From Psilocybe cubensis (taxonomy: Eukaryota), in contig CM039005.1 of the NCBI GenBank assembly GCA_017499595.2, positions 2,666,001 through 2,730,000 on the forward strand: a stretch of DNA of 64,000 nucleotides. Direction: 5' to 3'. The position numbers and the translations under genes were made by a program. This document shows positions 3,346 through 61,515 of this stretch, in pieces (the first letter of the stretch is position 1; each line of letters begins with the position of its first letter). The notes under the pieces are model-generated. The model was given only the letters and a program-made list of their open reading frames with translations, made no database searches and had not been told where the DNA came from.

Positions 3346-3762
3346 AACCACATCATAAAAAGTGCGGGTAGATTACAAAGCATTGTAAACCCAATTAAAT
3401 ATTTTTTTATTCGAAATTCTCACACTGCGTTACAACCCTCTTGAAATGTTGTGAGAAACCGGAAATATTGCAGTGTGAATAAAATAATTTGAGGTTTACA
3501 ATATTTTTGGGTATTGCAATATGAAAGAATAAGCGGCTAGTTTATAATCTCAACAAATTACTGTATGAGATGACAAGGAATCAAGAGCGTTATAAAACAT
3601 TGCGAGAATTTATTGGGTTTCTCAATGATAAGGAGGATTGAATGGGATTTTGAGGCACCCAGCAGATTATAATAGAACAAATTTATTTATTCAGTAATAA
3701 AAGTACAGGCATGGTATGTAAAGCAGGGCAGAGCAGAGCAATAATTACAGCAATGAGAGACA

Positions 3763-5886
3763 TCAGAATTTCTTAGCCTTACGTTTGATAGGTTGGCGCG
3801 TTCCCTTGGCCTGGGTCCTGGCCTTTTTAGCTGGTGGTTCTTCACCGTCGGCGGCGGTGGCGTCAGAATTGGGAGCAGGAACGGCATCAGCGTTGGGAGT
3901 AGGCAGGGCCTCATCCCCGGTCTCGAAGGGGTCTGAAGGTGGTGCCTGTAGCTAATATGAGCCCTAGATAGAGAATGTAATAAATGCACTCACGTCTTTA
4001 CGCTTTGGACCAGGGCGGCGTGGCGCCGCTTTCCTCTTTGCAGGGAGCTAATCATAATATTAGTGTAATGAACCAATCTCGAGTGAAAACGCACCTTGAT
4101 CTTGATCGGGGCTGGTGGGGAAGGGGAGCGTTCGTTTTCGGAAGAAAGAGAGGAAGAATCCTCGGAAGGGAGGTCAGGGGGGGATTCTGAAGGGATCCTA
4201 ATCGCGTTTAATGCCATTCGGCGACGGGAGACTTGTTGAGGCACAGGTTCCGCCAGTGAAACAGCTGCAAATGCTTTAGCTAGCGCTGGTGCAGACCCAT
4301 TATCTGGGGCGGGGTGGGAGGAGGGTGCGCGTGCTTGAGGAGATGCAGGTGCGGGTGTGGGTACACGAGCAGGTTCGGGTGTGGGTGCACGAGGGGGTGC
4401 GGGTGCAGGTGCACGAGCAGGTGCACGAGCAGGTGCAGGTGCTTGAGCCGCAGCGGCCATTTGAGCTTTACGCCGTTCTACCGGGTCTCTGAGGCGTCCG
4501 TCGCGTGCACTACCTTCCAAAGGGGACGACTTCTTGTCATGATCCACGGGCTCAGATGGCAAGATAATGTTCCTAGAAATTCATTAGCATAAAATCAAGC
4601 GCGTAAGGCACGCTTACTCTTGCCACCAAGCCACAGTCTCCTTGGCCCACGTATCGTCATCAGAAAGACCCGACAGAAGCGTCAGAATAGATGCGTAGAG
4701 GCGGTCGGCCTTCAAAATGCTCTTCGCCTCAGGCCAAGTCTTACCGCTGATTGCAATGACAAGCTTTGAAGGAGGTTAGCACTGACAGACTACTGACAAT
4801 GTCCACTTACCATCATGCAATAATAACATATGAGTCTTATCGTTAGTTCATATACTTTGTGAATCTGTCCTTTGCTGGCACGTCCTCCAAGCCTGTTGGC
4901 CTCGCCTACAAGCATACGTTGGACAAACTAGAGTGCCAATATGTATCAATGACATGTCAAAACATAAAAAAAAACTTACTTGGGGACCCAAGGGTGGTCG
5001 AAACAGACCTTGGACCTCGTCGTCTATGTCAAATGGGATGTCAGGGTCATACAAGCAAGCTGGCCAATCCAGCGCGTCTCCATTTTTGGTATCGGCTTCG
5101 AGTGATTCACATCGCACGCTATCCACAAATAAATCAACTCATATTCGCAGAAAATAACAAGCCGACTTACAGAATTTCACGCGCATTGAGGTCGGCGAGC
5201 TCGGCGAACTTGACACGCGGGATTAAAAGAGCGGCGTATGCAGGGTGTTTATAGCCCCGGTTCACCCTGGCACAGGCCAGTTTGTAGGCCTGTAGGTCAA
5301 GTGGGACCCTCAGATCAAATGGGATCAACTCCGGGATCAACTTATGTGCCTTGAAGAGATCGTCGGATCGCGAATGAGCTGCAGCACTCGATACCTTACA
5401 AGTATGGTTAGTCGATCTGTACATGCGACCTCACAAAATTCTTACCAAATCAATGACTTTGCCAATCAAGGCAGAATTGTCCTCGCACTTCTTGATGATA
5501 TCCATAAGGTCGGGCATCAAGTCCTGCATCTCATAGAAGGACCAGAGCTTGGGTTGTAAACTAATATATGCATAAATCAATGCCCCAGGAAAAAAAAGGC
5601 GCATATACTTACTCCAATATTTGTTGTCGGGTCATACCATCCGTTATATGGTTGGCCAGAAACTCGAGACCCTCTTGGATGACGCTCTTTACGTTCATAA
5701 ATGGGTCGATGGACTGGTGAATCCATCTCGCGCCCTTCAGAGTGTCTGCTAGTTCGGGGCATCTACAAATAACGTTAGCGGTTAACGCGCACGGGGACGG
5801 GGGAGGGGGGGGATTCAGGCTTACTCGAGTTCTTTGTTGGTGTCGATAGCCGTGAGGGCTTTTTCAATCTGGGTCGGGGTGAGCAT
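3763..5886 (-). CDS. Multi-exon Agaricomycete protein, DUF6698-like, with a Pro/Ala-rich basic C-terminus
   Basis: Spliced exons give MLTPTQIEKAL..WIHQSIDPFM..RSDD..RGYKHPAYAALLIP..WPACLYDP..GLFRP, ending KRKAKKF*. The family call is from memory of the motifs. Confidence 0.6.
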
Positions 5887-6109
5887 GGTGGTGGATGGTG
5901 GTGGTACGGGAAGAAAAGGGATGAAAAAAACTCCCTTCCGCATATACCGAGCGCAGTGGTTATGTAATGGACACCTGAGGAGGTACAGATGTCCGCGCTA
6001 TTCCGCGCCATTGCCATAACTAGCGGGCGAAGGAGGCGCGATCGCCATCGACAGCGAGCTGTCAGAGGATAAAAATAGCCCACCGCGAATCACCATAGCC
6101 AGGAGGTAG

Positions 6110-6683
6110 ACACCCAAGACGCCCCAGGTATACCCGTGCGTTGAAGCTTGTGGCCAGGGCTTTCGACGACGAGAAGGGGTGTATACGCGCACCGAACGAA
6201 CCCCCAGGTATCTCCGTGGGTTGAAGGGGGCTGGTAGTCCGTAGCAGCGACAGGAGCACCCTACAGAGTACAGAATTGCCATAGTCAAGCAGCCGCACCC
6301 AACGAACCCTCAGGTATTTCCGTGGGTTGAAGGGTGTGAGCACCGACTTGACCAGCCTACAGACTACGGAATCACCATAGTCAGCAGACTGCCACCAAAC
6401 TCCGAGACGAACAACCGCCAGACTACAGAAATACCATAGTCAAGCAGCCGCACCCAACGAACCCCCAGGTATTTCCGTGGGTTGAAGGGTGTGGGCACCG
6501 ATTTGAGCAGCCTACAGACTACGGAATCACCGTAGTCAGCAGACTGCCACCCAACGAACCCCCAGGTATTTCCGTGGGTTGAAGGGTGTGGGCACCGACT
6601 TGAGCAGCCTACAGACTACGGAATCACCGTAGTCAGCAGACTGCCACCCAACGAACCCCCAGGTATTTCCGTGGGTTGAAGGG
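6110..6683. repeat. Complex tandem repeat, ~97-bp unit, 5-6 copies of core aacgaacccccaggtatttccgtgggttgaaggg
   Basis: Core copies near 6195, 6297, 6452, 6547 and 6644, plus a degenerate copy near 6113. Confidence 0.9.
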
Positions 6684-6815
6684 TGGTAGTGGTGCGGAAG
6701 TCAACAGAGCCAACAAACGGAACCCTACCCAAATTCAGATTCCGCCTGATGGCAATTTCAAACTCCGACACGCGTGGTGATCTCAACACGTTCCTGCGTC
6801 ATTGGTTCTTCTTCG

Positions 6816-7011
6816 CTACCCAGGCTCATTGCTCGGGCAGCCTCACTACCCAGGCTCATTGCTCGGGCAGTACGCGCAAACTACCCAGGCTCATTGCTAG
6901 GGCAGAACGCGAGACACTACCCAGGCTCATTGCTTGGGCAGAACTCATAAACTACCCAGGCTCATTGCTAGGGCAGAACGCTTAAACTACCCAGGCTCAT
7001 TGCCAGGGCAG
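6816..7011 (+). repeat. Array 1 of the hairpin repeat ctacccAGGCTCATTGCnngggcag (6 copies, variable 5-11 nt spacers)
   Basis: Read directly from the sequence. It lies upstream of the 7314 gene. Confidence 0.92.
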
Positions 7012-7313
7012 TACGCACAGATAAATTGGAATTCCTGCTCCCCCGACTGTCCATAATGCCCCCCGTATGTATCTTACAATATCGAGGTGTATTTGGTTGC
7101 TAATTCTACGTACAACAGACTACGCCCTCCTTTGACTGGTCCCAGGGCTCCGTCTTCCTACAAGATGGTATAATTTACTACTCTCCCAATTGTAACCGAC
7201 CAGTCCGTATCAAGGCCCCAGAGCGGAATCACCCCCACCCATTCCCCGAACGTGCAGAGCCAGATCCCACCTCTGTCAAGCATCCTGTCTGGTGGACAGA
7301 CACCTTTGGGTGG

Positions 7314-10165
7314 ATGTCCTTCATACCGCTCAACCCATCCTTTATCTCCGACCCCTTCGACACCTTTACCTGGCAGCCTGAGCTGGATGTAACTCCTAGC
7401 TATAATACTCCACCCGGTCCCACTCTCTACCAGCTCGAAATTCATACTATAAAGCATTGGCGGTTTAAGGAACAATGTTTACTGGAAGCTGCGCACAAAA
7501 TGAAGCTATGGTACCACGTACCAGCCAGTCAACCACCCCCGCCTTCCATCTTTAAATACGATGAGCCCTACACATCGAAAGAAGAAGCTTATCGCCAGAT
7601 TAAATTGGCGCGAGATTGGTTTGCCGTATGGATGGGATTCTTTGCATATTTCGCTGCGTGTGCAAAGTATGACAAGTATTGTGCAGGAAAGATGGTGAGA
7701 GAACAGGGCGAGTTACTACCCCGATGGTATACCAGGCTGCTCGAGGAGGTTCCGATGCTACAGCGATCCTGGTTGGACGGGCTTTTAACATCGCCAGCGT
7801 GTGTATTCTCACCCGACACTCAGCGTGCAGGGATAGTTATTCCCTGGTATGAATATGACAATCGGAGGCCCGAGATACAGTTCTTCCTGGACCAGCAGAT
7901 TCCTGTTTTCTTTCCGTGGTGTGCCATCGCAGAACAGGCCATCATAAACAACCCCACCCTTCGCTATCTTGAGCCTCCTGCAAACCTTGTTCGGGATGCC
8001 CTTGAGAAGTTTCTGAACCGATTCCCCAGTGTTCCTCTCGCTGGCCTAATCCTTAGGTCCTACTTTCGATTTCATGATGGCCCGCTGCACTCCACCAAAC
8101 ATATATTGAGAATGGAACACAGTACGTCGTTGGTCACGAAATATATGTATGAAAAATTTGCCTCGCAAACCGACAAGGTCAAGGCGGCTATGGAGGAGAA
8201 CCAGGTGGAGGCCACGGTTGCAGAATTGAGGGAGATAGTAAGCCGAGCCATGGACATGGACCTCGCAGAGGCCGAGCGAGCCATAGCAAATCTCCCCACT
8301 CACGATTGGATGGACAAAGGTGACTACCACCGGAGAGGAGAGTTGTACGACCACGTCTCGATATTCTTGGAGAAACGCGAGAGAAACCAGCGCTTTATCA
8401 TTGCGACTGAGACCGAGGACGCAAAGATCAAAAGGCTTCAAAGAGAGGAGGCCCTCCCGGGGTACAACACATCGGTCTATAGGTGGAAAAGTGTCACGAC
8501 GCCGGGGGGGAAGGAATTATACATGCGAGTTCGCCTCCTTCGATCAAAGCACGAGAGACTGTTCGCAAAGGTGCCTCCCTCTCAACGAACATACAATGCA
8601 GTCTCAAACGAGTGGGACATTTTTGATGAAGTGGATTTGCCACGAAAATATTTGCAATTTGTGGACCCCCCTCCTAGGAAGGACGGTTATATCTACGACT
8701 ATCCTATCCAAGCCGCCCGCATCAATCCCCAGTCCATCATCCCCGACAACGATGTACCCCGTGTGGAATCCGTTCCCGTCATCCCAGAACCCTGTGTAGA
8801 CTCTTCCTCGGGTGGTGCGACTTCCCCTCATGAACCTCAGTACGAAACATTCCCCATGGACACGGAGGAATTTCAGGAGGGGCCTTCCCAGCCTCCGGTA
8901 CATCGTCCAGAGCCGGGCCCCTCCACCATGGATACGGACACTGATGAAGCTTCGAAAATCCACGATTACGATTGGGACACCGCCGACCTCATCTCCAACT
9001 TGCGATACAGCTATGGATTCGTAGCCTCTGTAGTCCCGAAGAAGGAGGATAAGACACCGGAAGGCTGGAAACACGCCTGTCAACACTTTGGGTTTAGGAA
9101 GGATGGGGCAGAACAGTTTGTCTCAAACACGGATCGTCAACTCATCTGTCAGTTTCATGACGGTTTGATGGGGTCAACTGACCGTCCGCTCCCTCAAGAC
9201 ATTCACGATCTCCACCCGCAAAATTACCTATCCCTTCAAGTTTTAGGGAATCTCAGCCTCATCCATCGGCCCATCCCAAATCTATTTGTTTTCGCTCATC
9301 ACGACATACGTGCACCTCAGGAAGAGTCCGACAGAATGTCTGCTGATTGGAGTATTGGAGTCGAAACCCCAGAGGCTGCTTTATATGTCTTACGAGTCTT
9401 CCAGTCCCATCCTGGGCATACAGTTGTCAGTGTGGCACACAGACTTTTGTCCAAAGGAGTGCAGTTTCGAACTCTTGTCGGGCGTAAAAATGTGGTTCAG
9501 GTGCATCAACCCTACAAGGAAGTTACCTTTTACCGCAAAGTCAGCTACAAGTTTACCAACGACGACTATGAGTCCTCGATGCTGGCCTGTTGGCAGATAC
9601 TGGACCAACAACGCGGTCGTGCAGCGCTACTCATGGGTGGAATAGTAGGACGAATCGCCAAAGAGTATCTGAGCACAGAGTCTGTTCTCCAGGGCCCATC
9701 AGTGGAATTGCTGAGAAATGGACGCGGATATGTCGCTAATCCAGAGGCCGAGTTGCTGGCTTACTGCGATGACGGGCTTACAGAACACGATATTGCGATT
9801 ATTATCGGGTCGTATTCTCTCATGACGGGTAAGTGTTCACTACATTTAACTGATCGCTCTATTTAATGTTGTTTTTAGATTTTAAAAATCAGGTCGGAGT
9901 CAAGTCTTGGTTTCCTCCCCCGGCGGTATGGAATGAAATCGACAGGAATGGGATAGGATGGCTGGAATGGACTGAACGCAACGAGTACTGGTACCAGACT
10001 AGGCTGGAATTAATTCGAAATGGCAAAGCGCAACCTTTAACGCTTCAAGACTGGAAGAGCCTTCTCAAAAATAAGCCAGTCCGTGTTCTAAGGGAATCGG
10101 TGCGAGCTCGATCAGCGGCATTTGTCCATGAACATATCCCCGTAACCAGGAATCCTCGTAGATAG
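7314..10165 (+). CDS. Large hypothetical protein (~930 aa, 2 exons), Plavaka cargo
   Basis: An 850-aa ORF, an intron at ~9829-9879, and a 3' exon. Motifs RGRAALLMGGIVGRIA, SWFPPPAVW and WTERNEYWY resemble uncharacterised Agaricomycete proteins. Confidence 0.75.
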
Positions 10166-10496
10166 GTAGCACATTTTTCTTGTTTCTTCATTCACGGATC
10201 TACACCACTACTCACAGTCTATTTTTGCCTTCGTACATACTACAAAACAAATTTTATGTATACTATCTATATTTCTTCGTACAAACTATTGGTCAGATAT
10301 CATGTATACCACGGAAAAAATTGTTTGGACCTGCATCGAAACATGTGTGAATCAATTCTGAGCCCAAAAAACATAAAAAAAACATGAGATTGCTTACAGT
10401 AAGCCGGTTAGGCCAATCAAAACTCCGCTAAGTTTTGAACTCCGACACCGCGCCCTATCACGCCTGAGGTTGATGTCTGCACTCTCCTTATTCGCT

Positions 10497-10793
10497 CTAC
10501 CCAGGCTCATTGCTCGGGTCAGAACGAATCGGTGGCTCGCTATCCAGGCTCATTGCCGGGATAAGAGCTTCCTATCCACTGTCCAGGCTCATTGCTAGGA
10601 CAAGGATTTTCTACCCCCTATCCAGGCTCATTGCTGGGATAAGGGTGTCGTTCGCCTGCCCAGGCTCATTGCTTGGGCAAGGATATCCCCCCTATCCAGG
10701 CTCATTGCTGGGATAAGGGTATCGTTACTCTGCCCAGGCTCATTGCTTGGGCAAGGATTTTCTACTCCCTATCCAGGCTCATTGCGTGGATAG
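10497..10793 (+). repeat. Array 2 of the hairpin repeat (8 copies of ccAGGCTCATTGCnngg with co-varying arms)
   Basis: Read directly from the sequence. It ends ~25 bp before the transposase ATG. Confidence 0.92.
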
Positions 10794-10816
10794 TTGTACT
10801 TCAGCAGGCCGTAATT

Positions 10817-13800
10817 ATGTCCGACGAAAAAAGACCCTGCTTAGGGTGCCATAAACTCTTCGTACCAGGTCGCTCCTTGAAGCAGCATACCAACAAATGT
10901 AAAAAATATCCTGCTGCAATGAGCAAGGTCCTGAAGGGGTTCCAGGAAAACTTCAGCAGGCAGAATCAGAACAGTAATGTTGCCAGTGGTTCTTCGCACC
11001 AGGCAACCCTTAATAATGAGCCCGGGCCTATGGACGTTGATGTCCATCATGAGTATCTCGATGTGGATATGGTACCACCTCCAATGCCCCCTGCGCCTCC
11101 ACCTAAATCACCAACACCACCACCACATCCCCCGACACCACCACCTCCCATTGAACGGCCCAGAGGACTTCCTCCACGCGTTATTAGATTGCCACAGCGC
11201 TTCCGAGACGAGGTCCCACCCGAACCTCCTCTAATTATACCACCAGTCGTGGAGGAGGAACCACCTCAGCCTCAGGAACCTCCATCTGTGGAGAGTCTGT
11301 ATCGAACACCAATGAATGGCTATGGGATATTTCGAGAGTATACCTATGGTCCCCCTTCTATTACTCCTGACGAACATTTCACACTGTCATCAGTGTCCGA
11401 TTCTCCAAATATTGCCAAAGACCCAGCCGACTCTTTGAGAAAGGCGTCAGAGGGAACACCAATGGCCCTACCTTCGGATTGGTCCTTGGATTCTGAGCCA
11501 AAAGACGACAAGAGCTTGCTATTCAAAAATCGTTCTACTCAACTTATCATGTCTTGGTTTTACAACGGCCACGGTACTAAATCCTATGCTGATACCGACA
11601 AATTGATTCACCAAGTCGTACTGGACCCGGATTTTGACCCCAAGGACTTTGATTCCTCCTTTTCTACTGCTCGAGAGGCAGCGCGTCTGGACGAAATCTC
11701 CACCCAAAAAAATTCTACAGATCCTACTTTGTCAGAAGTGTGTCGACCGGAAGCTGGGTGGATCAAGGGCAGCTTTTCAATACCAGTGCCATGCGACGGT
11801 TTCATATTCGATTCGGAAGAGGAGGCTCCTCAATTTGTTGTTGAAAACGTCATGTATCGAAAACCTCTAGAAGTTATCAAACAGGCCTTTGCAGAATGCA
11901 CCTCTGAGACGTATACGACCATACCGTACAGAGAATTTTGGCGTCCCTCACCCGACGAACCACCCGAACGCTTATTCTCAGAGTCCTACGTGGCGGACAT
12001 TTTCAATGAAGAGTATGAAAAGATCAAGTCAGAGCCACGCACAGGTCCCCACAGACACCTGGAGCCCTTTGTCGTTGGTATCGGGATTTTTTCAGATTCT
12101 ACCCACCTGACCAGTTTTGGCGATGCTTCTATATGGCCGATCCTTATGTATATCCTCAACCAGTCAAAATACACCAGAGGGAAACCTAAAGAATTCGCTG
12201 CGCACCATATTGCGTATATCCCTAAAGTAAGTTTGTATTGACTGGCATGTACTATTCATATTAACGTTTGGGTCATAGCTCACAGACACTTTTCAAGATT
12301 GGCATCAGCGACAGTTTGGCAAAGCTGCGACATCTGAAATGCTCACCCATATGAGACGCGAGGTCAATACAGGCGTCTGGGGGCTATTACTTGATGAGGA
12401 TGTCAAACGAGCGTATGCTGAAGGAGAGGCCGTAGAACTGGCCGACAGAGTATGTCGAGCTATGTATCTCCGTTTTATTTTTAGTTCAAATGACTACCCC
12501 GAAAAGTAAGTCAACATTTACTCGTTATTTCGTTTGATAACTAATGTACAAGCAGAATGCTGCAGTCCTGCTGCAAGTGTCGCGGCACTTGCTTGTGTCC
12601 ACGTTGTTTAATTCAAACTATGAATGTCCCAAAGGTTGGATCAAAGATGGATATGCGAAACCGGCTCAAGCTAGCTCGCGTTGACAGCGAAACTCGTCAA
12701 TTTGACATCGAAACTGCCCGTAAAGCATTGTTCTTGGGGAAAAAGGTTAACAGCAAGGCGGTTAATGGCTTGCTGCAACAGACCTCTGCTTTTCCAACTC
12801 GGGTATATTTTTATTTCCTCATATCTACGTATTTTGTCTAAGAGTATTACATAGAACGCTTTTTCCAAGGCTTTATTTGAATATGGCTTCAACTTTTATC
12901 GGATGTTTACTGTCGACTTCATGCACGAAGTGGAACTGGGTGTCTGGAAGGCCCTATTTAGTCACCTACTCCGGATTCTTTATACCTCTAGCAACCAGAA
13001 CGCCATTGCAACTCTGAACAAAAGGTATTGTCGTGATATCTCGATTCTTACTCAAACTAACTATAGATTTAGATACCGCCAAGTCTCCCCTTTCGGCCTC
13101 ACAACTATCCGACGTTTTGCTAGGAATGCTTCAGATATGAAGAAACTGGCAGCACGGGATTTTGAAGATCTCCTTCAGGTAGGCCTCAATTGCGTGTGAT
13201 GTTTGATTTTAATTATTAATGATTCCATAATAGTGCTCTATACCAGTCTTTGAGGGCTTGTTGCCAGAACCTGCACACAATAAAATTATTCAAAACCTCT
13301 TGTTTGAAATGGCGACATGGCACGCCCTAGCCAAGCTTCGACTTCACACCGATACCACTCTGGACGAGTTGGGGAATTCGTGTACTCGGTTATGTGATCT
13401 CCTTCGTCAGTTCCAAAAGGAGGTTTGTAGTCAGTACGCCACTCGCGAGCTTCCATCAGAAACAGCCGCGAGAGGAAGAAGACAGGCAGCCAAGGCCAAA
13501 AAGGCAGCGAGTGCGGGTCTGCCAGTACCTCCGACTCAACCCAATGAACCCAAGACCCGCACGTTCAATATGCAAACGTACAAATTGCATTCCCTTCCCG
13601 ATTACGTCGATTCCATTCGCCAATTTGGCACCACTGACGGCACGAGCACTCAGATGGGCGAAAGCGAGCACAAGAGAGCGAAACTCTTCTACAAACGGGT
13701 CAAGAAAGGTGATCATATTCGAGGTATCGCCAAACACATCTACCGAGAACGTGTGGTACACCGCACTAACCGTGTCGAGATACGCAAGCTGCTGCGTGAG

Positions 13801-14973
13801 GACAGGGAGTTACTGGAGCCCACTCCTCCTGATTTACATTATCACATCTCATCAGACGTGCGTCGAAAGTTAGATATACTACCCTGGATGTCACAAAACC
13901 AAAACGATCCGGCGACAAGGGTAAGCCGGATTTTTCGCTTGTTTTTATATACTCAATGTCGTATTTAGGACTTTATGCTTCGTCTCAAAACTCACCTTTA
14001 TGCCTGCTTATCAGGGGTAAACGAATTCAGTGATAGCATTGGTACCCATGAGCGACTCCAAATCACAATACTCGGTGACCGAATTTACGAACATCAGGTT
14101 CTACGCATCAACTATACTTCGTATGATATGCGTCGAATACAAGATACCTTGAAGCCAAACTCTTCCCGATGTGACATCATGGTACTCGCTAGCAACAAAG
14201 GTGCAGATCAGCAGGTTCATCCTTATTGGTATGCCCGTATCATTGGAATCTACCACGCCAATGTGGTAATATCTACCCCTGATGATTACTACCGTGCCTC
14301 CAAGCACAAAGTGGATTTTCTTCATGTCCGATGGCTGGGTGTTTGTGAAGATTGCCATTACGGTTGGAAATATAGAAGGCTTCCACAGTTGGCGTTTGGT
14401 GATATCAATGACTCTGCGTCGTTTGGTTTTGTGGACCCATCCCTCGTACTTCGTGCAACCCATTTGATCCCTCGCTTCATTCTTGGAAAAATACCGACTC
14501 TCGGCCCATCTGTAGCTTATAGAAGCAAAGAAAATAATGAAGGGGAAGAATGGGAGAGATATTATGTCAATTTGTGAGTACATTTAGTCACTTCTTACCT
14601 TTTACTAATTTTTTACAGTTTTGTGGATCGCGACATGGTCATGCTGTACAGAGGGGGTGGAGTTGGCCACGCTAGCACGCGAGCCGCTACCGATTCTCTT
14701 AGGCAAGACCGACGTGCAGACGACATTGCCTCTCGCAAAAAACGCCGCGAGGCACATGAAGCTCCCGATCCTGATCTGGAACCAGATGGGGCCTCAGACC
14801 AGGAGCAAGACGCTCAGGACCAGGCTGAAGTGGCACCTGAAAACAGCGCCGATTCTGATGACAATGAAGACGACAGCGACCAGCATACCGATTCTGAAGA
14901 GGAGGAGGAGGAGGAAAGCGACGAGGATGAGGACCGGGGTGACCTCGATGAACTCGGGTTTGCTGAATACTAA
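10817..14973 (+). CDS. Plavaka transposase (multi-exon)
   Basis: N-terminal Zn-finger-like CLGC..H..KC. Motifs FSDSTHLTSFGDASIWP..NQSKYTRGKP..HHIAYIP, DYPEK, CPRC, VDFMHEVELGVWK, KKLAARDFEDLLQ, TYKLHSLPDY, GESEHK and RINYTSYDMRR..HPYWYARIIGIYH, then an acidic tail. Confidence 0.92.
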
Positions 14974-15194
14974 CTGTAGCTTTATGTGAGTCTGTCGTTG
15001 ATTCTCTTGTACCTCTACTAACACCTTTTTAGATGTATCCTTGTCTTGGCGAGTAATACACAATACTTTTCTTGATTTTCGCGTGATTCGGTAAGGAAAT
15101 GTATTGATATTTAACTGAAATTTTATTGTAACATCCCTATACATCGCTGTACGCCCTTTGGGCTCTACTCTCTCATTGTGCAACTACGTATGTG

Positions 15195-15306
15195 TGCCTT
15201 ACCCCCTTCACATCAACCCTCATACACCACCTTAGCTGCAGCCCGACACGTGCCTTACCCCCCTCACATCAACCCTCATACACCACCTTAGCTGCAGCCC
15301 GACACG
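15195..15306. repeat. Tandem duplication, 2 x 56 bp
   Basis: tgccttaccccc(t/c)tcacatcaaccctcatacaccaccttagctgcagcccgacacg starts at 15195 and again at 15251. Confidence 0.92.
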
Positions 15307-15394
15307 ATACCGCCCTTATATTTCAGCGATAAGGACAGCACCGAGCATCGCCCCCAACCCAGTTCCGCAGCCTATTTCGACCTGGACGTGCCTG

Positions 15395-15838
15395 GCGCGC
15401 GCCACGCGTGTGCTGCGTATGCGTGCGCCACGCGTTTGAGGCGTATGCGTGCGCCACGCGTGTGCTGCGTATGCGCGCGCCACGCGTGTGTTGCGTATTG
15501 CGCGCGCCACGCGTTTGATGCGCGCGCCACGCGTTTGATGCGTATGCGCGCGCCGCGCGTTTGATGCGCGCGCCACGCGTTTGATGCGCGCACCACGCGT
15601 TTGATGCGCGCACCACGCGTTTGATGCGCGCACCACGCGTTTGATGCGCGCACCACGCGTTTGATGCGCGCGCCACGCGTGTGATGCGCGCGCCACGCGT
15701 GTGATGCGTATTGCGCGCGCCACGCGTGTGATGCGTATTGCGCGCGCCACGCGTGTGATGCGTATGCGCGCGCCACGCGTGTGATGCGTATGCGCGCGCC
15801 ACGCGTGTGTTGCGTATGCGCGCGCCACGCGTGTGCGT
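15395..15838. repeat. CpG-rich minisatellite, ~19 units of 20-27 bp with core gcgcgCCACGCGT
   Basis: 18 exact CCACGCGT cores plus one variant, counted by eye. Confidence 0.95.
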
Positions 15839-15967
15839 GTTTGTCCAGATACAAAGAGGCGTCGATACGGGGAGGGAGGGGTATACATGGATGTGTTTTG
15901 AAAAATAAAACTTGATTTCATTGTACACGCGTCACGGTAAACTCAGAGTGCCTGTCAAACGGGCCCT

Positions 15968-16486
15968 TTATTCCATCATCTCAACGTCCTGATCATCCCC
16001 CTCCCCATCGCGCATCTCGACGTCGCTGTCTTCGACGGTCCCCGAGTCCTCGATACGATTTTCGACTGCGACAACCTGTTCCTCCCGCTCTCGAATTTCG
16101 CCGTGGGTCGAAACGACGGGTTCGGTGTCGACTCGCCCGGTCGCGGGCTCTTCTACGCTGACAACGATCTCGACCTTGTTGTCGGTATCGACGTTGACGC
16201 CGATTTTTGCGTGCCCGTTGCGGCCATCGACGGCGACGTTGAGCCTGAGGCCGTCGCAATCGATCGCGAGGCCGAATTGTACTCCTTGGGGTGCAAAAAA
16301 AAATTAACAGTGAGTACTTACTTTGAATATTGAAGACTCACCTTGCTCATCCATTTGTCGTCTTCCGTTAACTCTTGTTATGCCGTTAGAAAGCTGTGGT
16401 GACTCGCTGGCGCGCTGTGGCGGGTTTGGTGGTGGTGGTGGTGGTGGTGGTGGTGGTGGTAGTTGAAAAGAAGCACGCGCCGCCAT
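15968..16486 (-). CDS. Small two-exon hypothetical protein with a poly-Pro N-terminus and an acidic C-terminus
   Basis: MAARASFQLPPP..MDEQ, then a GTGAGT..AG intron, then in-frame GVQFGLAIDCDGLRLNVAVDG..DVEMME*. Confidence 0.55.
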
Positions 16487-16911
16487 CGTTGATGACTGCG
16501 GCGCGCTTTTCCACGCCCGTTTTGGTCATCGTCGTCGACGATGAGCTCGATATCGACGAATTTTGAACGGATTAATGTAGTTATTACATGTATACGTAGA
16601 GAAATATAACGCTTACCGTGATTGGAACTTCGTTTGAGCGATCGTATGTTATATTTAACACACGCGCCGGGCCAAGACATACGGCCCCTATGTCGCCCGG
16701 TTATGTAATGTCCGGTCAACCGGACTTGTCGTAAACATACGAAAATTCTTACTTGATTTTGCAGGGTAAAACAAATAATTGTTTGCATATTGTAAAGCTA
16801 ATAAAAATATTACTTAACATTGTAAACCGGGCCCCGAAATTTGGGTGCATTTGTAAGACCAAAAATTTATTGTATTGGATTACATTGCTTTGTAATCTAC
16901 TGTCTGTTTAG

Positions 16912-17104
16912 TTGATGCATGCGGGAGAGTCACAAGGTCTCGCTTGCAGCCTCGTCCGATGGATGTATTTATCTGTGGGAAAAAAGTAGCCAGCGCGTTG
17001 AAACTCGAATGCTCTTCAATTGCGTTGGAGCTAAAAAGCTTGTATTTGCTGCTGTCCTAGCCGTTGCTTGCGTTAAATGGTCGTCGTACTTTTTTGCTGT
17101 ATGA
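16912..17104 (+). pseudogene. Probable 3' exon of the interrupted WD40 gene
   Basis: After a tttag acceptor it encodes LAASSDGCIYLWEK and a hydrophobic segment. This matches the paralog's IASAS..LHIWQW plus TM segment. A frameshift appears to be needed. Confidence 0.55.
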
Positions 17105-27686: not shown

Positions 27687-28503
27687 GGCGCAGAGGATCT
27701 TTGAACACTGGCGACACGGTGATAAATTGGAAAGACTTACAGAGACTGCGTTCATATCACAGTCGAAGGCCCAAGGAACACGAGAGTGTTTATTGTCGCT
27801 TCAGAGACGCAAACAAGCATTTCGAGAGACGTCGTCAATTGCAGAGAGATTGCTTATACTGAGCGCGTTCGTTCCGAGTCAGAAAGGTGCAACGAGCCGG
27901 CCCTGTTGTCTCCCGCGAGAGCACTTATGAACGGGTACCAACTGAATGGATACATTTCAGCGAAGCAAACATGAAAGATATTTCGAGAAACGCGTACCTG
28001 ATAACCCGAACTGTTTCGAAGAACTCCTCTGCGTCTTGGGCGCGGGCATCCGGGGACAATAACGAAGCAGGCAGACTCGTTGATCCTGATGTTGTCGCAC
28101 CTCAAATGGTTATGCGAGTGCAGCCAGACTCAGAGTTGACCTGGCTAGAACAAACTCGCAGTGTCGGGGATGTATAGATTATACCATGTCTGGATTTCGA
28201 ACGAGCGTCAATATTATTAGCCTACAAAGATAATTTATAGCACTTACGGGTTCTCCTATTTGGTATACAACGGTGGGCGGATTTGCTGGAGCGCGAGCGC
28301 GCGGGCGGGATGTCTGAGTAACCCTACTGTGGTGGTCAGAAGAGAGAGAGAAGAAAGCGTGAGAACTTGTCAACAGCGTTATGATATCCCACTCAAAATT
28401 TGATGCCGCTCTGCCGGACACAGATCACCACCGGCTTGAGCGGCTTGAAATTTCCGACGGTACATATTGCGGTGCCAGACATGATGGATCGCTTTCCTTC
28501 TCA
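27687..28503 (+). repeat. Dispersed repeat copy 1 (817 bp, inverted relative to 36340-37156)
   Basis: Near-identical sequence. The translated ORFs are identical apart from one residue. Confidence 0.95.
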
Positions 28504-33143: not shown

Positions 33144-33589
33144 AATATTATTAGCCTACAAAGATAATTTATAGCACTTACGGGTTCTCCTATTTGGTAT
33201 ACAACGGTGGGCGGATTTGCTGGAGCGCGAGCGCGCGGGCGGGATGTCTGAGTAACCCTACTGTGGTGGTCAGAAGAGAGAGAGAAGAAAGCGTGAGAAC
33301 TTGTCAACAGCGTTATGATATCCCACTCAAAATTTGATGCCGCTCTGCCGGACACAGATCACCACCGGCTTGAGCGGCTTGAAATTTCCGACGGTACATA
33401 TTGCGGTGCCAGACATGATGGATCGCTTTCCTTCTCACTCCGTCCCTCAACTGTGAGCGTAGTGTTCGTACGCCTCTGCATGCCCTCATTGCCTGACAAC
33501 ATCCAATCATCTGCACGGTTATATCACCATTTATAATATTCTAGCGCTTTTCTTACGTTCAGTGTGATAAGTCAAGAAAATCTGTATAC
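33144..33589 (+). repeat. Dispersed repeat copy 2 (446 bp, inverted relative to 36188-36633)
   Basis: Appears identical to the reverse complement of 36188-36633. Its first 294 bp also match 28210-28503. Confidence 0.95.
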
Positions 33590-36187: not shown

Positions 36188-37156
36188 GTATACAGATTTT
36201 CTTGACTTATCACACTGAACGTAAGAAAAGCGCTAGAATATTATAAATGGTGATATAACCGTGCAGATGATTGGATGTTGTCAGGCAATGAGGGCATGCA
36301 GAGGCGTACGAACACTACGCTCACAGTTGAGGGACGGAGTGAGAAGGAAAGCGATCCATCATGTCTGGCACCGCAATATGTACCGTCGGAAATTTCAAGC
36401 CGCTCAAGCCGGTGGTGATCTGTGTCCGGCAGAGCGGCATCAAATTTTGAGTGGGATATCATAACGCTGTTGACAAGTTCTCACGCTTTCTTCTCTCTCT
36501 CTTCTGACCACCACAGTAGGGTTACTCAGACATCCCGCCCGCGCGCTCGCGCTCCAGCAAATCCGCCCACCGTTGTATACCAAATAGGAGAACCCGTAAG
36601 TGCTATAAATTATCTTTGTAGGCTAATAATATTGACGCTCGTTCGAAATCCAGACATGGTATAATCTATACATCCCCGACACTGCGAGTTTGTTCTAGCC
36701 AGGTCAACTCTGAGTCTGGCTGCACTCGCATAACCATTTGAGGTGCGACAACATCAGGATCAACGAGTCTGCCTGCTTCGTTATTGTCCCCGGATGCCCG
36801 CGCCCAAGACGCAGAGGAGTTCTTCGAAACAGTTCGGGTTATCAGGTACGCGTTTCTCAAAATATCTTTCATGTTTGCTTCGCTGAAATGTATCCATTCA
36901 GTTGGTACCCGTTCATAAGTGCTCTCGCGGGAGACAACAGGGCCGGCTCGTTGCACCTTTCTGACTCGGAACGAACGCGCTCAGTATAAGCAATCTCTCT
37001 GCAATTGACGACGTCTCTCGAAATGCTTGTTTGCGTCTCTGAAGCGACAATAAACACTCTCGTGTTCCTTGGGCCTTCGACTGTGATATGAACGCAGTCT
37101 CTGTAAGTCTTTCCAATTTATCACCGTGTCGCCAGTGTTCAAAGATCCTCTGCGCC
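36188..37156 (-). repeat. Dispersed repeat copy 3 (969 bp, the union of copies 1 and 2, inverted)
   Basis: Reverse-complement match to 33144-33589 and to 27687-28503. Confidence 0.95.
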
Positions 37157-45846: not shown

Positions 45847-46150
45847 CACATAAGACAGTTTATTTATAACGTACATTACCTAAGATTTAATAATAAGGAT
45901 ATTACGTGAGACACGGTGGATTTACTCCCGCTACCTAATTAGGAGATTAGCGTGATGTACGTGTGATTTATCCTGGCAAATCATAGCGTACATGACGTGC
46001 CATTTAGCACTAAATGGAGCCGCCGGGTGGCATGCGGGATCCGCGTGTCGGGCTGCACGGGAAAAACACGGGCCGCAAATGAACCGGACGGGTCCATCTA
46101 CATCCCGTGTATTGCAAGCAGACGGATCCGTTTTGACCCGTGTTGTGCTG
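45847..46150 (+). repeat. Left TIR (304 bp, begins CACATAAGAC)
   Basis: Reverse complement of 61212-61515; no mismatch noticed. Confidence 0.95.
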
Positions 46151-46243
46151 TCAGACGGACCCATTTGACCCGTGTCTTCCCAGAGAGGGAGGGTTATTTA
46201 TGGGGTATTGCAAGTCAATGAGCACAAGGGCTCCAAAAATAAT

Positions 46244-47673
46244 TTATTCATCTCTACCGGTATACAAATGCTTTTCCAAACTCGATTCAATCCCTGCCAG
46301 CCCAGCGTCAATTTCCTCCAGCGCATTATAAGTCAGAATCTCTGACTGCAGCTGATGCAGCCGGAGGTTCTTGAACGTTGTAACCTTTCCGTCATAACTA
46401 CTGTTGCCGACGGAACTGTCAATTATTTGGTCGTATGTTGCCCGTAGCTGCTGCTCGGTATAATTCTAAAATAGTTGTCAGTATCTAGTGCTTGGTAATA
46501 TCTGAGTACATACATATAGAAAAGGAGGGTTAAAATACGCCGTCTGATCTGTTACATTCTTGAACTCAATGTCAGACTGGGTGGGAGGCGAACCGGGGTA
46601 GCCGCCCATGGGATCAAACCTGCCGTAGGTTCGAAAATAAGGGTTTTGAAGGAGCAGGTGGCATGCTTCAGGGGGTGGAGAATAGCAACCTTGCTTCCTC
46701 TCAGAGGAAATAGCTGGACGAGAGTCCATAATGATTTTGTCGACGACAGACGTGTATGAAACATGTGCTGCCATCAACGGCGGAGCCGCATCATCCCGGA
46801 TGACAGGCATAGGTGGAGGATCCAGGGTATCTGGAATAACAGGCATAGGGGGAGGATCCAGGGTAGGTGGAATGACAGGCATAGGGGGAGGAGCTAGGTT
46901 ATTTGGAATGATTGGCATTGGCGGCGGAGCCAAGTCGTTCCGGATGACAGGCATTGGCGGCGGAGCCGTGTCGTTCCGGATGACTGGCATTGGCGGCGGA
47001 GCCAGGTTAGCTGGAATGACTGGCATAGGGGGTGGAGCCAGGCTAGCTGGAATTACTGGCATTGGCGGCGGAGCCAGGTCTTTCCGGATGACTGGCATAG
47101 GGGGCGGAGCCAGGCTAGCTGGAATTACTGGCATTGGCGGCGGAGCCAGGTCTTTCCGGATGACTGGCATAGGGGGCGGAGCCAGGTTAGCTGGAATAAC
47201 AGGCATAGGGGGTGGAGCCAGGTTAGCTGGAATTACTGGCATAGGGGGTGGAGCCAGGTTAGCTGGAATTACTGGCATTGGCGGCGGAGCCAGGTCTTTC
47301 CGGATGACTGGCATAGGGGGCGGAGCCAGGTTAGATGAAATGACTGGCATAGGGGGAGGAGCCAGGTTAGCTGGAATAACAGGCATAGGGGGTGGAGCCA
47401 GGTTATCTGGAATGACTGGCATTGGCGGCGGAGCCAGGTCATCCGTCCTTGCTGTGCGTTTGCTTTCCTTAGAGTTGCTAATATTTGAAGACATTGCTGA
47501 TGCTCAGAAATCAATTTAAATTTACTTGAATTAATGCAATTAGTCTTACATTTTATAGGTTTTACGGGAGGAGGTTCCTTCAGTTTTTCGAGAAGCCTGG
47601 TAAGATTGTTGAGACTGGTGTAGTCAATGGGGGAATTTTTGCTAGAGGTGGGAATAAAGTTGTAGGAGGACAT
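46244..47673 (-). CDS. Hypothetical protein with 18 tandem 12-aa repeats (LAPPPMPVIxxx)
   Basis: A 36-bp repeat at ~46790-47437 inside a 338-aa ORF. The last exon reads NYTEQQLRATY..TGRDE*. The start codon is uncertain. Confidence 0.6.
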
Positions 47674-61070: not shown

Positions 61071-61211
61071 GCTATCAGGGTATGTGGAAAGGAATGTGCT
61101 GCCAGTATAATCTATACACCTTATTACATATATTAACGGTCATCCGATGTATGATTCTTCAAGGCGGATATTTGTCGGAATACAGAAGCGGGTGGATGAA
61201 TGGACCCGTCT

Positions 61212-61515
61212 CAGCACAACACGGGTCAAAACGGATCCGTCTGCTTGCAATACACGGGATGTAGATGGACCCGTCCGGTTCATTTGCGGCCCGTGTTTTT
61301 CCCGTGCAGCCCGACACGCGGATCCCGCATGCCACCCGGCGGCTCCATTTAGTGCTAAATGGCACGTCATGTACGCTATGATTTGCCAGGATAAATCACA
61401 CGTACATCACGCTAATCTCCTAATTAGGTAGCGGGAGTAAATCCACCGTGTCTCACGTAATATCCTTATTATTAAATCTTAGGTAATGTACGTTATAAAT
61501 AAACTGTCTTATGTG
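61212..61515 (-). repeat. Right TIR (304 bp)
   Basis: Ends ...gtcttatgtg and is followed by the TSD tttgtct. Confidence 0.95.

Follow-up and report, generated by a model that had tools for sequence, protein, structure and literature searches.

Paralogous motif arrays as probable 5' control modules of both genes in a PlavakaB transposon of Psilocybe cubensis

Introduction

Why should one short motif, flanked by arms that can pair with each other, stand in tandem before each of two genes of a single DNA transposon? The question is raised by a 64-kb stretch of Psilocybe cubensis DNA (referred to as the window), in which a 15-base motif precedes both genes of a Plavaka element and is found with natural stem variants that are compensated in the array before the transposase gene (array 2) and mismatched in the array before the other gene, ORF1 (array 1). 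Mushroom-forming fungi carry Plavaka elements in abundance. Should the motif work at the RNA level, a DNA transposon would here be controlled by a stem-loop array of a kind rarely met in nature; should it work at the DNA level, it would point to the factor site through which the element is coupled to the regulatory state of its host. Either outcome would help explain the timing of element movement. The most likely explanation is that ORF1 and the transposase gene of one PlavakaB transposon each possess a 5' control module, and that the two modules, to which the arrays belong, are paralogous. We put at roughly 0.8 the probability that the invariant part of the motif, CCAGGCTCATTGC..GG, is the putative recognition site of one sequence-specific factor and that its multimers would couple the expression of both genes.

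Results and Discussion

The Host Transposon and Its Genes

Both arrays and both genes are located in a 13,567-bp DNA transposon at 3351..16917 (+), which begins with CATCA (3351-3355), ends with TGATG (16913-16917) and carries a 57-nt inverted repeat, I1, that is 70% complementary between its arms (3351-3407 and 16861-16917). The element is flanked by a CA target duplication (3349-3350 and 16918-16919), which comes from a single insertion and, as a 2-bp match, would be expected by chance in about 1 in 16 cases. For PlavakaB, the termini are defined as 5'-CATCA..TGATG-3' and the target duplication as 2-3 bp (PMC12730594, section 3.2.2; 2025). Because its termini and its target duplication fit this rule, we regard the 13,567-bp element as a complete PlavakaB transposon, which also encodes a Plavaka transposase and is apparently intact; the A/B assignment is made from the ends. 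Plavaka itself is placed in the cut-and-paste CMCT clade (CACTA-Mirage-Chapaev-Transib) by the same source (PMC12730594).

The hexamer TTACAA is found near both ends of the element, within 3373..3501 on the left (3373, 3430 and 3496 on the + strand and 3383 on the - strand) and within 16790..16895 on the right, where it is inverted relative to the left end and is present as the reverse complement at 16790, 16820, 16851 and 16890. With four copies per end, TTACAA is likely the true subterminal binding motif, still putative, of the PlavakaB family here, and it is unrelated to the motif of the arrays. The left 2.7 kb of the element (3687-6089) contains only short or low-complexity open frames, such as an Ala/Pro-rich frame at 3990-4580 (-), and the open frames within 3687-6089 have no Pfam match. 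Downstream of the transposase gene, the element also contains a GC-rich tandem array at 15395-15835 with 20/26-nt periods and about 19 copies, whose unit includes the palindrome CACGCGTG (with ACGCGT), and adjoining it a 56-nt unit that is repeated twice at 15194-15306.

The ORF1 gene (7056..10165, +) starts with the ATG at 7056, contains an intron at 7065-7118 and further introns, and ends with the stop codon at 10163-10165. Its open frames are 97% identical to a 976-aa hypothetical protein of Psilocybe cubensis that starts with MPPTTPSFDW and ends with NPRR, and the start and last residues of ORF1 agree with this annotated homologue. Homologues of ORF1 also exist in related Strophariaceae, Pholiota among them. 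PF28437 is listed for ORF1 homologues in the search table; ORF1 itself has no match in the Pfam library searched, even at E up to 10, and no PDB sequence match. Its structure-atlas matches score no higher than 0.75 and are uninformative, and an AlphaFold2 model built from 10 sequences (mean pLDDT 43.9) is too poor for a fold search.

Co-oriented with ORF1 within the element, the Plavaka transposase gene extends over 10817..14577 (+), with an approximate 3' limit. Its exon 1 (10817-c.12241) starts with the first ATG in its frame, at 10817, and residues 344-469 encoded by this exon match Pfam PF18759 Plavaka with an E-value of 5.1e-11 and 42.8 bits against a cut-off of 26.3 bits, while the exons after exon 1 are predicted from downstream open frames. 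A Cys/His motif is present in the N-terminus of the transposase.

Two Arrays before Two Start Codons

Array 2 (10497..10793, +) begins 332 nt past the ORF1 stop codon and ends 23 nt before the transposase ATG, which bears out the placement directly before the Plavaka transposase given in the first-pass annotation of this DNA. The eight units with an invariant core that were described there are also recovered, with exact AGGCTCATTGC in 8/8, and so are their arms: TATCC..GGATA in four units, TGTCC..GGACA in one, TGCCC..GGGCA in two and ACCC..GGGT in one. The units start 36-43 nt apart. The spacers, which had been said to differ from each other, recur in a pattern: a 74-nt period (3.3 copies, 85% matches) outscores a 39-nt period in TRF, and successive 71-nt double units are 94% identical, which reveals two alternating spacer classes. 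The units alternate between an A-type (TATCC..GGATA) and a B-type (TGYCC..GGRCA). Given the two alternating unit types, array 2 is a minisatellite without repeat-spacer character and, because the 74-nt period is a higher-order repeat, its eight units are not equivalent to eight independent observations.

Array 1 (6816..7011, +) consists of six units of the form CTACCC-AGGCTCATTGC-NN-GGGCAG, which start 30-36 nt from each other, and stops 44 nt short of the ORF1 ATG. The two arrays are 3.5 kb apart, and their spacers cannot be aligned with each other. With up to one mismatch allowed, the 11-mer AGGCTCATTGC is found at 16 sites in the window, of which 14 are exact and all of these on the + strand, whereas dinucleotide shuffles average 1.12 sites and never exceed 4 (n=100; 0/100 reach 16). 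The units of the two arrays (14/14 on the + strand) are found nowhere else in the 64-kb window.

Each array also lies behind the same 11-nt box, AACTCCGACAC, which is identical in both modules and is found at 6761..6771 (+), 55 nt before the first unit of array 1, and at 10438..10448 (+), 59 nt before the first unit of array 2. The stretch from box to array consists of about 45 diverged nt that end in a pyrimidine-rich tract, and in a gapped alignment the upstream 116/117 nt of the two modules are 69% identical (71/103 aligned positions). Each of the proposed modules comprises, in this order, the box AACTCCGACAC, the approximately 45 diverged nt, 6 or 8 copies of a 25-nt motif, and the start codon.

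A short motif that is multimerised beside a transposase gene, in an element of the CMCT clade, calls to mind the subterminal repeats of CACTA (En/Spm) elements. These repeats are bound by TnpA and overlap the element promoter. In En-1, a CACTA element, there is a 12-bp subterminal direct repeat motif (PMC2613891). The arrays described here share with the CACTA repeats a short repeated motif, membership of the same clade and a place next to the 5' end of genes, and the likeness makes autoregulation through a protein of the element plausible. They differ in being internal, on one strand and absent from the right end, and in that each of them heads a gene. As sites for the transposase or a TnpA-like protein that would define a transposon end, the arrays are rejected by their position, provided that CATCA and TGATG mark the true ends: arrays 1 and 2 start 3,465 and 7,146 nt inside the left end, respectively, array 2 stops 6,124 nt from the right end, near which none of the 14 units is found, and the likely real subterminal motif is TTACAA, inverted between the ends. 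We consider that this reading has next to no probability.

Conservation of the Core

None of the 15 specified bases of CCAGGCTCATTGCNNGG varies among the 14 units, and the invariant part, CCAGGCTCATTGC..GG, is retained in 14/14 while the arms and spacers diverge. When the 14 units are aligned over 26 columns, 18 columns are invariant, and the variable places include unit positions 18 and 19, arm positions 3, 4, 22 and 23, and all spacers. A search of the 64-kb window for CCAGGCTCATTGCNNGG with up to three mismatches returns only the same 14 sites, each with 0 mismatches, and no degenerate copies. A covariance model of the 14 units likewise gives significant E-values to those 14 alone; of the 10 further matches, all at E >=0.17, six come from the opposite strand of these units.

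Contigs of public sequencing runs that cover the arrays are mostly near-identical, and no independent arrays are found among them. One contig over the last unit of array 1 is diverged, with 16 substitutions and 4 indels along some 190 nt, its limits being deduced from the contig-end column of the alignment table. Two of the 16 substitutions fall inside the core, and the core is therefore no mutational cold spot. The one run that is labelled RNA, by guess only, contributes a single contig (10871-11178), which stops short of array 2 and is uninformative on transcription.

These observations bear on the possibility that the arrays are neutral minisatellites, i.e., that a functionless, hairpin-prone unit was amplified by slippage in two places and kept uniform by concerted evolution. 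Palindromic units favour replication slippage, and the units here are of this slippage-prone kind; array 2 forms a higher-order repeat with double units that are 94% identical, and the same element has tandem repeats at 6087-6700, 15194-15306 and 15395-15835 as well, which makes at least three additional arrays. Nevertheless, 15 positions are fixed in 14 units while positions 18-19, the arms and the spacers vary, each array precedes a start codon and follows the box AACTCCGACAC, in matching position and orientation, and the core is mutated in the diverged copy. Furthermore, because the core is identical in arrays that are 3.5 kb apart with diverged surroundings and unalignable spacers, whole-unit homogenisation by concerted evolution is no explanation. 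We therefore regard a neutral origin as improbable. Judged from their sequence, the core and the upstream box are very probably selected elements.

Stem Pairing and Covariation

The arms of each unit can pair at positions 1-26, 2-25, 3-23, 4-22, 5-21 and 6-20, with A7 unpaired opposite N19 and an upper stem of the pairs 8-18, 9-17 and 10-16 around a TCATT loop. Position 19 is random (C in 3 units, A in 4, T in 4 and G in 3), while position 18, which faces the invariant G8, is a pyrimidine in 13/14 units, so that pair 8-18 is G.T in 11 units, G-C in 2 and G.G in 1. In array 2, the inner stem is kept by G.T or G-C at G8-N18 in 7/8 units, in agreement with the earlier count, and the last unit has G.G.

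Changes in the arms are found in two adjacent pairs. Pair 4-22 is C-G in 9 units and T-A in 5 and thus Watson-Crick in 14/14, and pair 3-23 is A-T in 5 and G-C in 3 units of array 2 and A.C in 6/6 units of array 1, so that it is paired in 8/14; these counts represent few events, as the units are related by duplication. For pairs 3-23 and 4-22 together, all four Watson-Crick combinations are present, and A.C occurs as an intermediate. Among the 10 rows of the alignment that are distinct, 90% of cells are paired and 2/9 pairs have changed on both sides. The observed covariation score is reached by 0/500 shuffles, a comparison in which related sequences can beat every shuffle, and when the partner columns are slid, pairing falls to 10-56%. 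In a simulation on ten arm positions, two random substitutions restore pairing in 4-9% of trials and four do so in 0.5-3%. Arm complementarity is greater than expected by chance, with about three compensated steps versus one uncompensated step in a small, post hoc sample that comprises two adjacent pairs, about three events and one array, and gene conversion could lower the count.

The covariation had been described earlier as beyond what simple tandem drift readily explains. It does exceed what independent substitutions would produce, but the events are few and template switching could yield the same pattern. Template switching in replication can create or restore stems in single events and without selection (PMC8794818), and it would turn an A.C quasi-palindrome into G-C or A-T, as array 2 shows. 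The units resemble template-switch quasi-palindromes in being short imperfect inverted repeats, both arms of which change in single events (PMC8794818). They differ in that template switching is a mutational process, by which neither the invariant asymmetric core nor the placement before two start codons is explained.

A control hairpin is provided by the 97/155-nt tandem repeats at 6087..6700 (+), upstream of array 1, each unit of which contains a GACTACGG-AATCA-CCGTAGTC palindrome. In this stronger palindrome, two of the five full copies are perfect and three carry 1-3 bare mismatches, mostly CpG-to-CpA, none of which is compensated. Template-switch repair is therefore not pervasive in the element, and the control palindrome tilts the balance towards selection over template switching in the array 2 stem, without settling it. 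The 6087-6700 units also hold a hairpin-capable segment, AACCCCCAGGTATTTCCGTGGGTT, with a loose likeness to the array unit (ACCC..CAGG..ATT..GGGT), of which it may, by sequence, be an older relative.

RNA, Single-Stranded DNA or Duplex DNA

In RNA folding, the same hairpin is predicted for 14/14 units with energies from -7.4 to -17.2 kcal/mol, and the minimum found for the whole of array 2 keeps all eight local hairpins. By unit stability, the + strand is better in 8/8 units of array 2, and the - strand is better in 5/6 units of array 1 and tied in the remaining one. Folded as whole-array RNA, array 2 has z values of -6.9 on the + strand and -7.0 on the - strand, and array 1 has -2.5 (+) and -5.9 (-). 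There is no strand preference in folding that is consistent over the two arrays. In ssDNA folding, the energies of the 9/14 units tested are no better than -2.4 to -8.3 kcal/mol, and the three array 1 units tested against shuffles have z values of -0.2 to -1.95.

If the units acted as ssDNA hairpins or cruciforms, for example when the element replicates, recombines or transposes, the presence of inverted-repeat arms and their maintained complementarity would be accounted for. However, the ssDNA energies are weak and those of array 1 are near shuffles, a 5-nt loop and internal mismatches disfavour the extrusion of cruciforms, and Plavaka belongs to the cut-and-paste CMCT clade (PMC12730594), in which the element ends are acted on; the arrays are 3.5-7.1 kb away from these ends. 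A role of this kind is very improbable. For the selected RNA or ssDNA hairpin array proposed in the first-pass annotation, the constraint on the core and the complementarity of the arms are retained, but the A.C mismatch of array 1 and the weak ssDNA folding count against it.

The form of the control-module reading that we favour, at somewhat short of even odds, is that the units are transcribed as 5'-leader stem-loops and bound by a protein. A small stem-loop would form from each unit in the 5' leader of the + strand transcript: a lower stem of variable sequence, then an A that is invariant and unpaired, and above it a stem of G.Y, G-C and C-G with a UCAUU loop. The array would be bound by the ORF1 protein, the transposase or an RNA-binding protein of the host, and the bound protein would set the translation or stability of both mRNAs. 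That a single RNA-binding protein, possibly the ORF1 product, jointly controls both mRNAs through the 6 + 8 leader stem-loops is less likely than not. To our knowledge, no post-transcriptional autoregulatory circuit of such a kind has been described for cut-and-paste transposons.

The position of the arrays is relevant to this proposal. No ATG is found on the + strand in the 304 nt that precede the ORF1 start or in the 341 nt that precede the transposase start, where about five would be expected per stretch from the ATG density in the element (0.017 per nt), a comparison to which the repeats give modest weight. Because a start site downstream of array 2 would leave an unusually short leader in the 23-nt gap to the ATG, it is probable that at least some of array 2 is transcribed or that the array contains the start site. 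The suggestion that the array belongs to a 5' leader gains from these ATG-free stretches and from the distances of 23 and 44 nt to the start codons. Against the RNA stem-loop proposal stand the A.C mismatch in 6/6 units of array 1, the better folding of array 1 on the opposite strand and the inconsistent strand preference. It has no Rfam family: a search of 6000-11000 on both strands against Rfam 15 at E up to 1 gives 0 matches. In addition, the invariant asymmetric 13-mer looks like a site for a factor that binds duplex DNA.

Tandem multimers directly 5' of transposon genes are a known promoter design. The units may instead be duplex-DNA sites in the promoter or leader for a transcription factor, encoded by the host or by the element, and act like enhancer or promoter monomers, with the arm complementarity being a by-product of template switching; we give this possibility about one chance in three. 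Proteins that bind DNA typically have sites like the invariant asymmetric 13-mer plus GG of the 14/14 units, dimers often recognise sites with partial dyad symmetry, and tandem multimerisation 5' of the genes fits the promoter design mentioned above. The tolerance of an arm mismatch in 6/6 units of array 1 and the fact that neither strand is consistently favoured in folding also agree with duplex-DNA sites, as does the ability of template switching to make or restore stems in single events (PMC8794818). On the other hand, such sites give no reason for the joint change at 3/23 and 4/22, and the neighbouring palindrome is unrepaired. The 23 nt to the ATG hardly leave room for a core promoter and a leader downstream of array 2, and the unit spacing of 30-43 nt lacks helical phasing.

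Comparison with Known Systems

The arrays would belong to a known kind, the tandem control repeats that head the genes of mobile elements. Tandem promoter or leader repeats of this kind, which are transcribed in part or in whole, include the 5' monomers of mouse L1 and the array of Su(Hw) sites in the 5' untranslated region of gypsy. As in L1 and gypsy, the units here are tandem copies of one site, putative in this case, that lie directly 5' of coding sequence in one orientation, co-oriented with the genes that they precede. The difference is that L1 and gypsy are retroelements, the units of which have no co-varying hairpin arms, whereas here two genes of a DNA transposon have one array each.

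Among RNA elements, the stem-loops of MS2/PP7 reporter arrays, iron-responsive elements and Smaug recognition elements are bound by proteins. The units are similar to these stem-loops in their invariant loop and upper stem, their invariant unpaired purine and their several copies per putative leader, as well as in a lower stem that varies in sequence yet stays paired. They are different in the mismatch found in every unit of array 1 and in having no Rfam match, and the comparison is made here from the DNA sequence. CRISPR arrays are similar in look only, with a constant, partly palindromic repeat that alternates with short variable stretches; the arrays described here are from a eukaryote host, have two repeated spacer classes and varying lengths, and have no cas context.

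Relatives, Earlier Descriptions and Other Repeats of the Window

When metagenomes were scanned for pairs of cores separated by 15-45 nt, at least 117 loci were returned, and three of the 117 listed have the full CCAGGCTCATTGC context. Among the matches listed, neither these three nor the six most core-rich loci include a true relative, and the closest of them (L102) was rejected as a duplication inside a bacterial-type coding region. The sole match in prokaryote genomes, at 3599-3719 of a Lachnospiraceae contig (L118), was dismissed as a chance match: it consists of four copies of TCCTCCAGGCTCATTGCTTGG, which encode a PSNEPGG repeat on the opposite strand. Viral contigs gave 0 matches to the array pattern. 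As the metagenome, prokaryote and viral collections are not collections of fungal genomes, absence from them says little.

In the literature covered on Plavaka and Kyakuja/Zisupton, no description of such arrays was found. The main text of PMC12730594, in which the Plavaka ends are defined, does not contain the words "subterminal", "tandem repeat" or "hairpin", and the single mention of Plavaka in PMC9674265 is about a deletion event and has no bearing on the arrays. The core is not known to correspond convincingly to any transcription-factor site.

Other repeats are found in the window outside the PlavakaB element. A 36-nt repeat at 46800-47439 (about 18 copies) was considered as a second pre-gene array and rejected, since its period corresponds to 12 codons inside an open frame; it lies in a 341-codon open frame on the - strand (46478-47503) and is read as a 12-residue coding repeat. 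Between 27687 and 37156, there are an 817-nt inverted pair (27687-28503 and 36340-37156, 99.9% identical), a 446-nt inverted pair (33144-33589 and 36188-36633, 100%) and a 294-nt direct pair (28210-28503 and 33144-33437, 100%); by sequence, these long and near-perfect repeats suggest another nested or rearranged mobile element. Finally, a 319-nt inverted repeat with 98.7% identity, whose arms (45847-46165 and 61199-61515) are about 15 kb apart, may delimit another large element.
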